Part shown: piece by piece, positions 30,390 through 36,441 of the stretch
Position numbering within the stretch: position 1 is the stretch's first letter
Layout: each line of letters opens with the position of its first letter
Source: a virus
Lineage: Duplodnaviria; Caudoviricetes
Length of the DNA: 36,441 nucleotides
Direction: 5' to 3' (one strand)
IMG/VR virus record: IMGVR_UViG_3300030397_000677
Location: 1-36,441 of that record
Notes under the pieces: generated by a model
The model's input: only the letters and a program-made list of their open reading frames with translations
Told to the model about the DNA's origin: nothing
The model's database searches: none
Made by a program: the position numbers and the translations under genes

Positions 30390-30950
30390 ATGAAAAATAA
30401 AAGTCAAAAACAAATTTCTAATAAAAATAAGTTTGCCGATAATCCAAGAAAAATCTCTAAAGAACAAAAGAAATTATTAAAAGAACACTTGGAAGAGCTT
30501 GGCGATTTATCCGGCGTTGTATATTGCCGGAAAAATAAAGCATACGTCGGCGGGAATCAAAGAAGCGATGTGCTTGACGGTTCTGAAATTATTATTGCGG
30601 AAGAGTATGAAAAACCAACCAAAGCCGGAACGGTCGCAGTCGGTGAAATTATTTACAAAAGCGAAAGATACTCTTATCGCGAAGTCGAATTTTCAAAAAA
30701 ACAATTTGATAAAGCGTGTATCGTTGCAAACTCGGACGGCGGAGTGTTTGATTGGAATGCTTTAAGTTCCGGCACTTGGACGACCAAGCCTTTCGACGAT
30801 TGGGGATTAAAATTTCCGCAAGGTTTCCGGAGATCTGCAAAAAAAGAATCTAAGGAAACCGAAACGGGCGAAGCCGAAAGAAAAGAGCTGTTAAAAAAAT
30901 ACGGCGTTGAGCTTGGTCAACTTTGGCAACTTGGCGACCATCGGCTTTAA
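30390..30950 (+). CDS. ParB/Srx-like domain protein (N-terminal part of an interrupted ParB-methyltransferase fusion)
   Basis: DNPRKIS and VGGNQR motifs; ends GQLWQLGDHRL, the usual lead-in to the methyltransferase domain. Confidence 0.75.
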   Translation: MKNKSQKQISNKNKFADNPRKISKEQKKLLKEHLEELGDLSGVVYCRKNKAYVGGNQRSDVLDGSEIIIAEEYEKPTKAGTVAVGEIIYKSERYSYREVEFSKKQFDKACIVANSDGGVFDWNALSSGTWTTKPFDDWGLKFPQGFRRSAKKESKETETGEAERKELLKKYGVELGQLWQLGDHRL

Positions 30951-31634
30951 TGCGGAAACTCAAGTGACAAAAAAGATGTTGCGAGCTTGATTGGCGAGAA
31001 CGAAATGGATTTAGTTTTTACCGATCCGCCGTATAATGCTTTGAGGTCCTGGAATGCAAAACCCGCCAAAAAATACACACGGTTAAACAAGCGGGATTGG
31101 TTTGATAACGACAATATGAGTTGGAAAGATTTTGAAATTTTCTTGACTGAAGTATTTGAAAACTTTAACTCGCATTCGATTTATGTGTGTTGCGACTTTA
31201 GGATTTACGATTTAGTTAAACTTTGCATCGAGAAGCAAAAATATAAAATTCGACATTGCATCGTTTGGAAAAAGAATGTTTGGGGATTGGGCAAGCGTTA
31301 TCGTTTTCAACACGAATTTATTATTTATGCAACAAAGGGAAACGCACCTTTTTTCGGCGATAAATCACAGAGCGACGTTTGGGAAATTGATGTCGACCGA
31401 AAGACCAACCATAAAACGCCAAAACCTTCCGAACTTCCAAGACGTGCCATAATTAACTCATCAAAATTAAACGATAATGTTATCGACTTTTTTACCGGAG
31501 CCGGATCGACGCTTATTGCTTGCGAGCAGGAAAAGCGTCGTTTTTTCGGCTTGGAACTTTCGCCGGAATCGGTCGCCGTAACTTTGGAAAGGTTTTACAA
31601 ATTTACAAATAAAAAACCGAAATTGATAAATTGA
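30951..31634 (+). CDS. Beta-class N6-adenine/N4-cytosine DNA methyltransferase domain, in frame after a single TAA
   Basis: CGNSSDKKDVASL, DLVFTDPPY (motif IV), IVWKK, HEFIIY, HKTPKP, DFFTGAGSTLIAC (motif I) and GLELSP. Possible independent TTG start at 30987. Confidence 0.85.
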   Translation, partial: CGNSSDKKDVASLIGENEMDLVFTDPPYNALRSWNAKPAKKYTRLNKRDWFDNDNMSWKDFEIFLTEVFENFNSHSIYVCCDFRIYDLVKLCIEKQKYKIRHCIVWKKNVWGLGKRYRFQHEFIIYATKGNAPFFGDKSQSDVWEIDVDRKTNHKTPKPSELPRRAIINSSKLNDNVIDFFTGAGSTLIACEQEKRRFFGLELSPESVAVTLERFYKFTNKKPKLIN

Positions 31635-31638
31635 TTTT

Positions 31639-32226
31639 ATGAAAAAATTAAGCTCAAAAAATAAATATAAAGATAATCCGAGAATAATTACCGAAAAAGA
31701 GCAAAAACTTTTAAAAAAGCATCTTAAAGAATTCGGCGATTTATCTGGGATTGTTTATTGCGTTAATAACAAAGCATTTGTCGGCGGAAATCAACGTAGC
31801 GACGCTTTGGACGGTTTGGAAATTAACATTCGGGAAAGGTTTGAAAAACCAACCAAATCAAAGACCGTTGCTTATGGCGATATCGTTGGAAAAAACGGCG
31901 AGTTGTATGCTTATCGTGAAGTAAAATTCACCAAGCAACAATTTAAAAAGGCTTGCATAGTTGCCAACTCAAACGGCGGAGCTTTTGATTGGGCAAAACT
32001 AACGACGGATGTTTGGAATAAAGAAAACCTAAAAGGCTGGGGTGTGAATTTTCCCGCCGGATTTGAAAACTTCGGAAAGAAGCAAAAAAAGAAAGTTGAA
32101 TTTGAAGCTAATTCAAAAGGTGAAAAATTATTTTTTCTCAATATCCAATGCGACGATGAAAATCAATGCAAGGAACTTTACAATCAATTTATAGAAAAAG
32201 GATTTAACTGCAAAATAGTTACTTAA
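31639..32226 (+). CDS. Second ParB/Srx-like protein, paralogue of 30390
   Basis: DNPRIIT, GDLSGIVYC, VGGNQRSD and KACIVANS shared with 30390; short C-terminal IQCDDENQCKELYNQFIEKGFNCKI domain. Confidence 0.75.
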   Translation: MKKLSSKNKYKDNPRIITEKEQKLLKKHLKEFGDLSGIVYCVNNKAFVGGNQRSDALDGLEINIRERFEKPTKSKTVAYGDIVGKNGELYAYREVKFTKQQFKKACIVANSNGGAFDWAKLTTDVWNKENLKGWGVNFPAGFENFGKKQKKKVEFEANSKGEKLFFLNIQCDDENQCKELYNQFIEKGFNCKIVT

Positions 32227-32230
32227 AATT

Positions 32231-32527
32231 ATGAGTGAAATATACGACGATTTAATGCAAATAATAACTGAAGCCGAGCAATCTTCGCCAAGAATTCCAA
32301 ATAGTGAAATAAAGGTAAATGACGGAATTTATATTTTGCCGTGCAATGAGAAAAAAGAATTGGTTGGTCTTGATTATGAAGTCTTAAATTTTCATTTACA
32401 GAAACAAGGCTTAACAGTTATAAAAACTGAGTTTTTGCAAGTTGAAAATTACGGCGATTGTTATGTGATGCCAAAACCAAAAGTTAATTTATTTGATCAA
32501 AAATTTCGATGGGGCTGGAAATGGTAA
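32231..32527 (+). CDS. Hypothetical protein
   Basis: 98 aa, between the ParB-like and ATPase genes. Confidence 0.55.
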   Translation: MSEIYDDLMQIITEAEQSSPRIPNSEIKVNDGIYILPCNEKKELVGLDYEVLNFHLQKQGLTVIKTEFLQVENYGDCYVMPKPKVNLFDQKFRWGWKW

Positions 32528-33249
32528 AGAAAATTCCAAAAAATGTAAAAGTAAAACTTGAATCCGAAATAATCGACGATTATTACACAAAGCGAGCTTG
32601 TGACTCACAAGATTTAGATATCAAGAAAAAATCACGGCATATTTTAGAAGTGCAAAACATTGCTCCGGAATCTGATTGGAGCATCGGTGTTATTTTTGGT
32701 TCATCAGGAAGCGGAAAAACTTCACTAGCAAAAAAATTGTTTGGTGCAAATTGTTTTCAAACAGCTTTGAATTTGGAAAAACCGATAATCTCACAATTTG
32801 GCGATTCAATGAATTTTGAAGATCGTGCAAAATTATTAAATGGCATCGGATTAAATTCCGTTCCGTGTTGGGTTCGCCAAGCCAAAACTTTATCGAATGG
32901 GCAAAGGGCAAGAGCGGAAGCATCATTATTGATTTCCGACCAATCTAAAAATTTAGTTTGTATCGACGAATGGACTTCCGTTGTTGACCGGCCGGTTGCT
33001 AAGGTGATGAGCCATTGTTTGCAAAAATTTGCAAGGAAACAAAAAAAGAAAATTATTTTAGTTACTTGCCATCGGGACGTTATCGAATGGCTCAAAGCTG
33101 ATTGGATGATTGATTGCAATACTGAAAAGTTTATAAACCGAAGTGAATTAAAACAAGGTTTTTTTTTGAGCCAAAAACAGAACTTAAATTCGACATCCGA
33201 AGGATCGACCGAGAAAGTTGGAAGTATTTTAGCAAGTATCATTATTTGA
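32521..33249 (+). CDS. Soluble ABC-type ATPase (N-terminal part of ATPase-GNAT)
   Basis: Walker A GSSGSGKT, signature LSNGQ, Walker B VCIDEW, H-loop VTCH; no TM partner. Start is ATG 32509 or 32521. Confidence 0.85.
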   Translation: MVKKIPKNVKVKLESEIIDDYYTKRACDSQDLDIKKKSRHILEVQNIAPESDWSIGVIFGSSGSGKTSLAKKLFGANCFQTALNLEKPIISQFGDSMNFEDRAKLLNGIGLNSVPCWVRQAKTLSNGQRARAEASLLISDQSKNLVCIDEWTSVVDRPVAKVMSHCLQKFARKQKKKIILVTCHRDVIEWLKADWMIDCNTEKFINRSELKQGFFLSQKQNLNSTSEGSTEKVGSILASIII

Positions 33250-33689
33250 GCGACCAAATGCCAGGCGGGAATTTATTTTGTTACGGACTTTTTCACGGCG
33301 ACGATCAAATTGGTTTTCAATGTTTCGCAAATTATGTTCCTCGTGAGCGTGATAAACGAATGATTTACCATTCTAATCGGACGGTTATTCATCCGGACTT
33401 TCAAGGCTTCGGTCTTGGGATTAAATTTGTAAATGCTTGCACGAAACATTTTGTTGATAAATTTGGCTATGAAATAAGAGCAAAGGGTTCACACTCCGCA
33501 ATGTTTTACTCAAGAATAAATGATGAAAATTGGGAATTGTTAAGGGTTCGGCGAACGTTTGGCTCAATTAAAAAAAATCACGATTTCGGAGCTCTCAATC
33601 GGCGAACGGCTTATCGGGAATACGGAATAAAAACTTATCATTTTCGTTATGTCGGACACGATAAAAAACTGTTTAACATTAAACATTAA
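33168..33689 (+). CDS. GNAT (Mom-like) acyltransferase domain, in the -1 frame from the ATPase
   Basis: The frame is open from the T9 run: EPKTELKFDIRRIDRESWKYFSKYHYLS...; acyl-CoA motif A RTVIHPDFQGFGLG. Confidence 0.8.
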   Translation, partial: EPKTELKFDIRRIDRESWKYFSKYHYLSDQMPGGNLFCYGLFHGDDQIGFQCFANYVPRERDKRMIYHSNRTVIHPDFQGFGLGIKFVNACTKHFVDKFGYEIRAKGSHSAMFYSRINDENWELLRVRRTFGSIKKNHDFGALNRRTAYREYGIKTYHFRYVGHDKKLFNIKH

Positions 33690-34404
33690 AAGGGAATATT
33701 TTTTAGAAATTCTCGAGGGAAAAAAAACCGAAGAATTTCGCAAAGTTTCAAAACATTATAAATCCCGAATTGATGGGAAAGACATTGAAACTCTTTTGCT
33801 AAAAAATGGATATTCAAAAAATGCCGATTGGCTTTTGGTTAATGTTGAAAAAATTTACAAGCGTCGCCGGAAAGTTAAACTATACGGCGACAAACCGACT
33901 CTTGTTTATGTGATCAAATTGGGCGATGTGATAGATAGTTTTGTCGCTGATAATGATTCAACGGAAGAGCAAGGAAAGAATTACGGCAGAGGGCAACATC
34001 CAAATTCACGAAAAAACTTGATTCTCGGTGCTTGGCAAGAAGGCGAATCCGGCAATCCGGACGGAAAAAAAAAGGGAACTAAAGACCGTGCAAAAGTGTT
34101 AAATTCTTTCTTGCATTTGAAAGTTAAAGTTCCAAATCCGCTCGATGCAAACGGCGATAAAACTTTCGTCGATTTGCCGGAAATAATCGAGATGACTGTT
34201 TATGAACAAACTGCAATGGCTTTAATCGGCAGAGCTTTATCCGGTGATGTAAGGGCATTCAAAGAAATCCAAGATACATTACACGGCAAACATATAAACC
34301 GTCGCTCGCAGTTAATTGATGAAAATGAAGATAAGTCGTCCGAATTAGACGAAGCTTATATCGACGATTTAGAAAGAATTTACGGCAAAGACAAAGAGGA
34401 TTAA
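33649..34404 (+). CDS. ASCH domain fused to a terminase small subunit-like (DUF5681-type) region
   Basis: N-terminal LTLNIKREYFLEILEGKKTEEFR (GxKxxExR); then HPNSRKNL..WQEGESGNPDGKKKG and ALSGDVRAFKEIQDTLHGK; lies upstream of terL. Confidence 0.75.
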   Translation: MSDTIKNCLTLNIKREYFLEILEGKKTEEFRKVSKHYKSRIDGKDIETLLLKNGYSKNADWLLVNVEKIYKRRRKVKLYGDKPTLVYVIKLGDVIDSFVADNDSTEEQGKNYGRGQHPNSRKNLILGAWQEGESGNPDGKKKGTKDRAKVLNSFLHLKVKVPNPLDANGDKTFVDLPEIIEMTVYEQTAMALIGRALSGDVRAFKEIQDTLHGKHINRRSQLIDENEDKSSELDEAYIDDLERIYGKDKED

Positions 34405-34408
34405 ATTT

Positions 34409-34789
34409 ATGGCTACAAACGGAATTGTTTCTTTTACAGAAAATGGAGATGTTAAAACAAAAATTATTGTTGGTTGTGACGGTTATAATGCTGAACAATT
34501 TGCAATCGCATCTCTTCACAAAAAATTTGAAAAACTTTCTGATTATTATGATTTTGCACTTGCTAACGATTTTGGATGTCGTGGGTGTTTAGTTGTAATG
34601 AATTCAGAAGAGCATATATTTATCGGCGACGGCGAAATAATTCCTGATTTATATTATGCGACTTTTAATGTTTGGTTTGTAAATCCGAGATGGACAAAAG
34701 GCATCGCAAGCAATGTTATTAAAATCAACCAAACAAGAAAAAGAATCTATCGTTTTAATTTTGATATTCAAAAAGTAAAAATTGACTAA
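34409..34789 (+). CDS. Hypothetical protein between terS and terL
   Basis: 126 aa, contains GCDGYNA and FGCRGCL; stop abuts the terL ATG. Confidence 0.65.
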   Translation: MATNGIVSFTENGDVKTKIIVGCDGYNAEQFAIASLHKKFEKLSDYYDFALANDFGCRGCLVVMNSEEHIFIGDGEIIPDLYYATFNVWFVNPRWTKGIASNVIKINQTRKRIYRFNFDIQKVKID

Positions 34790-36235
34790 ATGTCGGGAAA
34801 TCCAAAATTAAAAAAATTGTCGCCGGAAGCATTTAAGCGTTATGCACGAACGGCGAAACGTCTTGGCGTTCCAAAAGATACCTTTCAAAGATTCCACAAA
34901 GCTCGGTATGTAGCACAAGAAAAACAATTAGAGTTTCACGCATCCGCAAGATTGGCGGATAAAATTCCGGAACTTGTCGACATCGGATACGGCGGAGCTC
35001 GCGGCGGTGGAAAAACTTATGCAATTTTCGCACAAATTGCACTTGACGACTGCCAACGAGTTCCAAATCTAAAAGTTTTATATTTGCGAAAACACGGCGG
35101 AGCAATTTCCGAAACGCTGGACGAATTGGCAAAAAGCGGATTGCTTGCAAACATCCCGCATAAAGCATCCGGTCGCAAAATCAAATTTGCCAACGGCTCG
35201 CAAATCATAATCGGGCATTTTCAATATGAAAAAGATATAAATAAATATCTTGGTCAAAACTACCAAATCATCGCCATCGAAGAGGCGACGCAGTTATCCG
35301 AATCAAAAATAATAAATATCAAAACTTGCAATCGTGCGAGCCGTCGTATGAATTTCAAGCCGAGAGTTTATTATTCGACGAACCCCGGCGGAGTTGGACA
35401 TCAATGGTTTAAGGATAAGTTTATCGTTCCTTTCCGTGATGAAAAAAGCGGAAAAAAACAAACAACGACTCGTTTCATTCCGGCGACTGTCGATGATAAT
35501 GCACAAATCGACGAAAATTATATTAAGAATAATCTTGATACTTTGGTCGGTTGGCAGTTAAAGGCTTGGCGTTTTGGCGATTGGGATGTTTTTGCCGGAC
35601 AATTTTTCGACCGTTTCAAATATGATGAACACACTTTCGATATTGATAAATCAATTTTTGCGGATTATGAATTGCCGACTCGTGATATCAGAATTTGGGG
35701 GTCGATGGACTGGGGATTTCAGCACTACAATACATTTTATCTTTTCGCAAAATATGACGGTATGCTTTACACGCTCGGCGAAAGTTGCAAGCGACAAGCA
35801 AATGCCGAAGAGGTTGCAAACGGTATAAAAGAAGTCGTGAATCAATTTTCTTTTCCCGACGGCGAAACTTTAGATGTTTTTGATTTGGAAGATATTGTCG
35901 CCGGATCGGATGTTTTTAAGTTTGACGGCGAGCGTGGAACGACTCTTTCGGACGAATATGGCTTGCACGATATAATCTTAAATCAAGCAAACCAAACAAG
36001 GCTTGCCGGAGCATCAAAAATTTATTCATTACTTGGCGACTCAAATCAAGGCAAGATAAGCCGTGTTAGAATTTCACGTAGTTGTCGAATGTTAATCAAA
36101 CAACTTCCGGCGATGCTACACGACGAAAAAACGCCGGGCGATGTAAAAAAAGTAAATGTTGATGAATTTGGAAAAGGCGGAGACGATGCTTATGATGGTT
36201 GGCGTTATGGCGTGATGGAGTTTGAAGATTCGGTC
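34790..36235 (+). CDS. terL: Terminase large subunit
   Basis: Walker A GGARGGGKT, Walker B IAIEEAT, STNPGG, nuclease GSMDWG and DDAYDGWRY. The true end is probably SVGLY* as read at 100-117. Confidence 0.95.
36131..36235. repeat. Terminal direct repeat copy 2
   Basis: Identical to 1-105. Confidence 0.95.
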
Positions 36236-36402
36236 TTGGGATTAAATATGTAAATGCTTGCACGAAACATTTTGTTGATAAATTTGGCTATGAAATAAGA
36301 GCAAAGGGTTCACACTCCGCAATGTTTTACTCAAGAATAAATGATGAAAATTGGGAATTGTTAAGGGTTCGGCGAACGTTTGGCTCAATTAAAAAAAATC
36401 AC
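36229..36402. repeat. Second copy of 33408-33581 (GNAT internal segment), likely chimeric contig end
   Basis: 174-bp direct repeat with one mismatch (33427 T vs 36248 A), joined through shared TTCGGTC. Confidence 0.85.
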
Positions 36403-36441
36403 AACAAAAAAAGAGGCAAAAAAATAAAATGGACCCAGAAG

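Follow-up and report, generated by a model that had tools for sequence, protein, structure and literature searches.

What does a tailed phage do with an ASCH domain that is joined, in one reading frame, to what is likely the small subunit (TerS) of its terminase? This question is raised by a 36,441-nucleotide stretch of viral DNA (the window; IMG/VR record IMGVR_UViG_3300030397_000677), in which such a gene follows a putative acyltransferase gene. The original prediction saw ASCH as a domain that could read or erase an acylated base and thereby allow the terminase to tell phage from host DNA. Here, we ask whether the fusion is real, what its halves are likely to do, how often they are joined elsewhere and whether the acyltransferase can be made at all.

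The locus and its surroundings

The window corresponds to a circular tailed-phage genome of 36,130 bp: bases 1-105 recur at 36131-36235, contigs from three metagenomic runs all pass from 36235 into window base 106, and it is at base 106 that the true end of terL and the portal gene resume. Past 36235 there is a chimeric assembly tail (Table 1), and the contigs ruled out that the 174-nt repeat around the cassette (33408-33581 and 36229-36402) is a biological one. The runs (X1, X2, X3) are aquatic metagenomes from a single study, possibly the source of the window itself, and our comparisons with them are between assembled contigs, which drop rare variants.

A ParB-methyltransferase gene (with an internal TAA), a ParB-like gene, a 98-aa ORF, the ABC ATPase, GNAT, the fusion gene, a 126-aa ORF and terL follow each other in this order, ParB-like, base-modifying enzyme and terL genes sharing one operon. 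The original prediction saw motifs typical of the gene preceding terL; the fusion gene does lie upstream of terL but is separated from it by the 126-aa ORF, which has no match in Pfam, PHROG or NCBIfam. By atlas comparison (0.93-0.95), this ORF resembles phage protein clusters. Two paralogous ParB-like domains stand in tandem, one before the methyltransferase (30390-30950) and one on its own (31639-32226). The TAA in the methyltransferase gene is fixed in contigs from all three runs; a homologue (in L390) is uninterrupted with Leu where the window has TAA, and the stop looks like a plain nonsense change.

Such a locus is of a known kind, the ParB-terminase modification loci. For ParB-Tls loci, DNA modification has been predicted as part of packaging and ASCH as a binder of modified bases (PMC4738411) and, likewise, the window has ParB-like genes, a methyltransferase, ABC-GNAT and ASCH directly upstream of terS/terL. 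It differs in two respects: ASCH is fused to TerS instead of being fused to or placed beside methyltransferases, as in those sections of the ParB-Tls paper that were accessible (PMC4738411), and its methyltransferase, unlike the ParB-Tls description, has an internal stop.

Table 1. Features of the cassette in the window and their coordinates
Feature	Position	Strand	Remarks
ParB-like/N6-N4 DNA methyltransferase gene	30390..31634	+	in-frame TAA at 30948-30950
ParB-like cassette protein	31639..32226	+	phrog_620, E 6e-8
ABC-type ATPase, short product (246 aa)	32509..33249	+	phrog_11143 positions 2-198 of 357, E 4e-57
T9 run at ABC/GNAT linker	33159..33167	+	predicted slippage or -1 frameshift site; would yield full-length ABC-GNAT
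GNAT acyltransferase domain, -1 frame	33168..33689	+	phrog_11143 positions 257-354
ASCH domain (phrog_625 family), residues 1-97	33649..33939	+	domain proper, residues 8-97
GxKxxExR octapeptide	33718-33741	+	K26, E29, R31; plus Y17
Fusion joint F98-V99-A100	33940..33948	+	without stop, without ATG
DUF5681 small-terminase-like domain, residues 99-251	33943..34404	+	Pfam DUF5681, 39.8 bits (cut-off 27.5)
A9 run in TerS half	34065-34073	+	A_AAA_AAG at 34068; a -1 slip would meet a stop four codons downstream
C-terminal tail motif, residues 241-246	34369..34386	+	shared with TerS of phages in the same TerL clade
126-aa ORF between fusion gene and terL	34409..34789	+	
Terminase large subunit	34790..36235	+	485 aa read across the circle junction; Pfam Terminase_3, E 8e-10
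Chimeric assembly tail	36236-36441		past 36235, copy of 33408-33581

ASCH and TerS are joined in one frame

As predicted, ASCH and the TerS-like DUF5681 domain share an uninterrupted frame of 251 codons (33649-34404, +) with GKKTEEFR at residues 24-31, GESGNPDG at 132-139 and GDVRAFKEI at 199-207. Single contigs of X1, X2 and X3 (depth over the ORF 315, 194 and 263) span it wholly with 0 other letters and 0 gaps, and none has a stop or indel at the joint, the kind of finding that the original prediction had named as speaking against a fusion. The joint coincides with the ends of stand-alone ASCH genes and the beginnings of stand-alone TerS genes, F98 and V99 occupying the places of the stop and the ATG seen in an unfused locus (L144). 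That a sequencing or assembly error joined two genes is hardly credible: although the tail of the window is chimeric, two more genes close by are interrupted and the three runs belong to one study, three separately assembled contigs (depth 194-315) agree letter for letter over the gene, the joint has no homopolymer longer than 4, and one of the neighbouring interruptions is a conserved signal (see below).

Also in line with the original prediction, there is no early internal ATG, the first being codon 182. In-frame GTG/TTG triplets at codons 88, 91, 94 and 124 were scored with a start model built on 29 genes of this phage (all ATG; true starts -5.7 to 7.8); their contexts reach 0.7, -4.8, -7.1 and -5.8, whereas the annotated ATG has 3.2, which leaves an internal start unsupported. 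We consider it improbable that separate products are made after all, be it free TerS from an internal GTG/TTG or free ASCH through a -1 slip at the A9 run. The context of GTG88 is middling (0.7), the A9 run is the longest among in-frame A_AAA_AAG sites and the neighbouring gene uses a slippery run; yet 29/29 modelled starts are ATG, A_AAA_AAG heptamers occur (n=8) in 9,954 codons, the A9 site has no upstream Shine-Dalgarno sequence and weak downstream structure (-4.4 kcal/mol), and homologous fusions in which conservation could be compared were not found.

In structural terms, residues 112-134 form a predicted linker with pLDDT below 50 in the full model (whose alignment has no TerS rows) and 57-64 in a TerS-only model.

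The ASCH half keeps its putative catalytic motif

The N-terminal half matches phrog_625 (E 9e-19, profile positions 3-94 of 98) and, below the cut-off, Pfam ASCH (E 0.008); a PDB-sequence profile search with it gave no match. An AlphaFold (AF2) model built on 34 sequences (pLDDT 95-98, residues 11-100) has ASCH structures (3iuw, ZmASCH) as best Foldseek rows (E 0.002-0.04) and aligns by VIA with 3iuw (Z 8.2, rmsd 3.5, 78 aligned) and with YqfB 9kyf (Z 6.3). The top Foldseek and VIA rows are ASCH chains, and the modelled fold is the PUA-like beta-barrel. The octapeptide (G24-K26-E29-R31) comes after the first helix and is of the glutamate (GKER) type, and K26, E29 and R31 are invariant across the 34 aligned homologues. 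The domain is not decayed either, as its leave-one-out score (105.6 bits) lies within that of the family (78-123), a set picked by likeness to the window ASCH. Thus intact K/E/R residues, a modelled ASCH fold and the phrog_625 match together bear out the predicted ASCH domain with its GKKTEEFR motif.

The same fold is found in ASCH amidohydrolases, namely E. coli YqfB (GKTR type) and the GKER-type proteins TthASCH, EOLA1 and TRIP4-ASCH, and the window residues K26, E29, R31 and Y17 are spaced as K23, E26, R28 and Y14 of TthASCH. Identity to solved ASCH structures is only 15-23%, however, and unlike the assayed proteins the window ASCH belongs to the phage-specific phrog_625, of which no assayed member was found in the literature. 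In the accessible part of a recent preprint (10.64898/2026.02.27.708502), Lys and Glu of the motif are essential for ac4C removal from tRNA and all 19 ASCH proteins assayed took ac4C off tRNA; several of them shift ss/dsDNA, but nucleic-acid binding varies and charge does not predict it. An earlier study cited there found some GKER-type proteins without activity on ac4C. Because Lys and Glu are essential, all 19 proteins active and binding variable, the likelier chemistry of the window ASCH is that of a predicted N4-acylcytidine amidohydrolase (eraser). ZmASCH has been described as an ssRNA nuclease (PMC5615036).

The DUF5681 half is very likely the small terminase

The prediction that the C-terminal half is TerS-like is very likely correct: DUF5681 scores above its cut-off, it stands before TerL and it has a tail that matches its TerL clade. 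Of 47 DUF5681 loci, 46 had their next long ORF scanned, and in 36 of these 46 it is a Pfam terminase large subunit (64/67 candidate ORFs were submitted overall and 53 matched), and phmmer places TerL in 43/47. Structure comparisons are less telling. The best VIA row in 48,161 chains is the NV1 small terminase 7joq at a weak Z of 3.5 (rmsd 2.6, 44 aligned), Foldseek against PDB gave no match at E<=0.001, a BFVD row named TerS matches weakly (E 0.06), and a PDB-sequence profile search returned repeat-protein noise only. Window TerS and known small terminases such as NV1 TerS (7joq) share the position before TerL and a C-terminal tail, which co-segregates with the TerL clade, and may be alike in a helical hairpin core; unlike in solved TerS, no helix-turn-helix was seen in the window half or the DUF5681 family. 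SF6, P22 and lambda gpNu1 are other small terminase subunits for comparison.

The tail motif, drawn up after inspection of these sequences, is present in all 10 of the phages closest in TerL (8 of them by score, 2 by eye in the output) as opposed to 5/110 stand-alone DUF5681 homologues and 1/47 DUF5681 loci, and that one is in the same TerL clade. In these ten phages TerL is 43-51% identical to that of the window, and they mostly have TerS of other types with the common tail motif. By sequence, the tail may be inferred to dock TerL. Since it is shared with the closest-TerL phages and no rival TerS candidate is evident in the window, the fusion is likely the phage's own working TerS. On a related note, TerS of unrelated N-terminal types stand before terL in L374-L383 with one tail motif within the TerL clade, which suggests that TerS bodies may have been swapped while a TerL-matched tail was retained. 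No experimental TerS role for DUF5681 was found in the literature; the domain is named in a virion proteome list, as given in the accessible part of its source (PMC8954984).

The two halves are separate genes elsewhere

Is the fusion found in other phages? Among 477 candidates from one search, the only match was the fusion itself. With phmmer against 1.84 billion representatives we obtained 528 matches, and the best 149 of these 528 (a 2,644-aa repeat protein among the best 150 was left out) were cross-searched with each half: 38 were ASCH-only, 110 TerS-only and the query alone had both. A relative with two such halves would sum their scores and rank high, while ASCH fused to another TerS family would score with one half only; the three longest ASCH-only matches were scanned and had no TerS family. 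Similarly, none of 66 phage records covers 80% of the fusion, none of 373 loci has ASCH and the DUF5681 TerS family in one frame, the protein cluster has a size of 1, and all atlas feature matches are below 0.9. No relative emerged when loci were scanned with a single protein, be it the ASCH half or the ABC half, or among 7 candidates of a word-index search with the ASCH half, and no ASCH from 36 further loci (mostly re-fetches). Nor did we find a close relative of the phage, the best TerL identity being 51%.

The only other long C-terminal extension of ASCH in the 373 loci is a PAPS-reductase fusion. It occurs at L005:3992-5371 (Acidovorax phage Alfacinha1 gp49), where the same ASCH family is joined to a PAPS-reductase-like part beside a cytosine methyltransferase. 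Our literature search, with most subscription papers outside it, found no ASCH-TerS fusion. The Iyer et al. 2013 NAR paper and its supplements reportedly hold many ASCH architectures and may include this type.

What does recur is the unfused arrangement. A separate ASCH gene stands directly before TerS and TerL in at least five independent loci (L144, L042, L017 with its near-copies L015 and L019, L217, L264), with apparently three types of TerS as judged by eye and with ABC-GNAT upstream in four of the five (L144, L042, L017, L217). In L144, ASCH, one stop, 15 nt and the ATG of a TerS of the same family follow in the same frame. As for DUF5681, single-member fusions elsewhere involve methyltransferase, ParB-methyltransferase or TerL pieces; either its N-terminus fuses with whatever precedes or assemblies mimic fusion, and these singletons may include assembly errors. 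In sum, no second ASCH-TerS fusion was found, the ASCH scans covering 20/64 and 15/64 parts, and every relative found has two genes, which largely goes against the original prediction. Most likely, two genes merged here once, and the fusion is not a sensor dedicated to modified DNA.

Alternatively, selection may keep ASCH as a tethered helper that gives the TerS ring a basic DNA-binding surface or strips acyl marks from the pac site, with no self/non-self sensing involved. Despite several points in its favour, we regard this as unlikely. The ASCH half is basic (pI 9.6; TerS half, pI 5.2) and N-terminal, where many TerS are generally known to have their DNA-binding domain, the TerS family shows no helix-turn-helix, and ASCH directly precedes TerS of apparently three types in at least five loci. 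However, 110 stand-alone TerS-half homologues and 47/47 DUF5681 loci do without ASCH. DNA shifts by several ASCH proteins would suit such a helper, but the failure of charge to predict ASCH binding, in the same preprint (10.64898/2026.02.27.708502), does not.

The upstream acyltransferase is probably expressible

An acyltransferase had been predicted upstream, and there is indeed a GNAT domain (Pfam Acetyltransf_7, E 0.001), whose coding sequence reaches 41 nt into the fusion gene, across its ATG. Rather than being a gene of its own, it forms the C-terminal portion of a larger ABC-ATPase/GNAT gene, read across the T9 run, which is identical in contigs of all three runs. Intact 366-aa ABC-GNAT homologues exist in Leptospira phage LE4 and Pasteurella phage Pmp13. 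We surveyed the boundary in 165 ABC matches (4 without anchor), which gave 147 distinct full-length linkers.

A putative shift signal at the ATPase/GNAT boundary is present in 135/147 linkers and absent from 12, with the reservation that the patterns were set after inspection and that the sequences are related, those of the T-run class strongly so. There are 84 linkers with a cassette composed of an in-frame NGG, AGG or GGG, any codon, CTT/GTT and a pyrimidine, 35 with T runs of 9-11, 14 with A runs of 9-12 and 2 with A7G. By comparison, control windows of the same genes have any such signal in 19/880 cases, none being a cassette or T run, and upstream codon use in ABC-GNAT genes is 6% AGG among Arg and 11% CTT among Leu codons. 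The frame +1 to GNAT is open for 23-31 codons in 120/121 signal-bearing linkers with a located GNAT, in part owing to the conserved GNAT coding beneath, and the other frame is scattered. The 246-aa ABC ORF of the window is exactly the predicted short product. The best reading of these sequences is that one gene gives two predicted products, ABC-only and ABC-GNAT. For run-type linkers, phase variation as in T2 agt, described with phage contingency loci in the accessible part of PMC12633550, is a rival. We have dropped the view that ABC-GNAT is a decaying frameshifted gene, given a shift signal in 135/147 linkers; decay stands for the methyltransferase.

The signal takes three interchangeable forms in the window (33159-33167), L001, L006-L086, L144, L217 and L294-L373, and spans many phyla, archaea included. 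Some hosts make little use of Shine-Dalgarno pairing. This might account for Bacteroidota-like loci (L294, L339, L346, L350, L356, L361) with A/T runs and not the Shine-Dalgarno cassette, L295 and L310 being exceptions.

A precedent is dnaX, for which bacteria differ in how they obtain the tau and gamma products (accessible part of PMC5009743): ABC-GNAT, likewise, would be one gene with a short ATPase and a long product, the means differing by lineage. The cassette has a geometry like that of the RF2 (prfB) +1 site, i.e. an internal Shine-Dalgarno sequence, one codon, CUU and a pyrimidine. Unlike the RF2 site, it has Trp, Arg or Gln codons and no stop codon, and GUU replaces CUU in 18/84 cassettes, known here from sequence. 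In the literature we found nothing on ABC-GNAT recoding and no demonstration of an ABC-GNAT substrate. The acyltransferase, then, is probably expressible and a functional link with ASCH can accordingly be entertained. In practice, cloning of ABC-GNAT in search of its product is to be expected to yield two proteins, and copies that look 'split' ought not to be annotated as pseudogenes.

ASCH is probably an optional partner of the acyltransferase

ASCH lies near ABC-GNAT in 13/160 ABC-GNAT loci (8%; 8/80 viral, 5/80 genome) versus 0/47 loci of the DUF5681 TerS family, none of which has ABC-GNAT. Marginal as it is (Fisher p 0.04), this difference favours the part of the original prediction that linked ASCH to the neighbouring acyltransferase. 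In the remaining 147/160 loci, the flanks that were fetched, some of them short, showed no ASCH. Among the 160 ASCH-selected loci, counted as matches listed in scans that covered 20/64 and 15/64 parts, ASCH is near TerL in 4 and near ABC-GNAT in 2. In L006, L071, L296, L314 and L345, ASCH is on the opposite strand, overlaps or abuts the GNAT end and so cannot share a packaging transcript.

A quick ASCH tree, weakly resolved with 9/83 branches starred, puts the window ASCH nearest to ABC-GNAT-linked ones (L217, L294, L042, L007), whereas four convergent ASCHs group apart in a clade of their own (support 100). Given this separate clade, the cassette has likely acquired ASCH repeatedly. The branch of the window ASCH is long (2.1 vs a median of 0.65), which would fit relaxed or changed function. 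Overall, the distribution suits an optional acyltransferase partner that is also a general accessory gene of phages better than it suits a motor part.

This bears on the model put forward originally, in which ASCH reads the base acylated by ABC-GNAT and gates the terminase, restricting packaging to modified (phage) DNA. In the window, writer, ASCH and TerS follow one another with overlaps, the writer can probably be expressed, and ASCH binding of modified bases as well as a tie between ParB-terminase modification and packaging have been predicted in the accessible sections of PMC4738411. Nonetheless, we find the model rather improbable, considering that the fusion is a singleton, that no ASCH was detected in 147/160 ABC-GNAT loci (some flanks short) and that it is encoded on the opposite strand in five, and that the retained catalytic K/E/R fit an eraser, 19/19 ASCHs in the preprint having removed ac4C from tRNA. 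As is generally known, a pac sequence can suffice for a 36-kb temperate-like phage to choose its DNA. A role of the fusion in distinguishing phage from host DNA thus finds no backing in the flanks of the 10 closest-TerL phages or in 47/47 TerS loci, where ASCH is absent, nor in the five opposite-strand loci.

Discussion

What we favour instead, at a rough probability of 55%, is a tolerated, lineage-specific fusion in which TerS works as usual and ASCH is a deacylase companion of ABC-GNAT. The join likely arose in the lineage of the window from two adjacent genes of a ParB / ABC-GNAT / ASCH / TerS / TerL cassette. The TerS half would form the usual ring and may be inferred to dock TerL via its C-terminal tail, with the ASCH half hanging outside on a flexible linker of about 35 residues. 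Other TerS proteins carry a DNA-binding domain N-terminally on the outside of the ring; ASCH would sit at just this place, so the fusion could be tolerated. By prediction, the GNAT would acylate a base in an ATPase-coupled reaction, while ASCH with its Lys/Glu/Arg motif may hydrolyse N4-acyl-cytosine on nucleosides, RNA or DNA and so clean up or limit the mark. By being fused, ASCH and TerS would be co-expressed at a fixed 1:1 ratio and ASCH kept close to packaged DNA, and the choice of DNA to package would not need the fusion.

Counting against mere tolerance, neither the stop of ASCH nor the ATG of TerS is left and the phage is abundant in the samples; the fusion has thus been maintained and may be under selection. 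A fusion conserved in the phage's own clade, from which no close relative was found, is possible.

A link between modification genes in front of the terminase and packaging has been proposed computationally, and we found no test of it in the literature. For such a link a single fusion is weak evidence. A bolder scenario, doubtful in our view, has ABC-GNAT acylate phage cytosine and ASCH, on the TerS ring, read or remove the mark as packaging starts. If true, a chemical self-tag would be linked directly to the packaging motor, its writer would be a two-product enzyme set by recoding, and the fusion would be a Rosetta-stone case for the ABC-GNAT / ASCH / TerS gene order. Either way, the natural ASCH-TerS fusion provides one small protein in which the link between modification and packaging can be tested.
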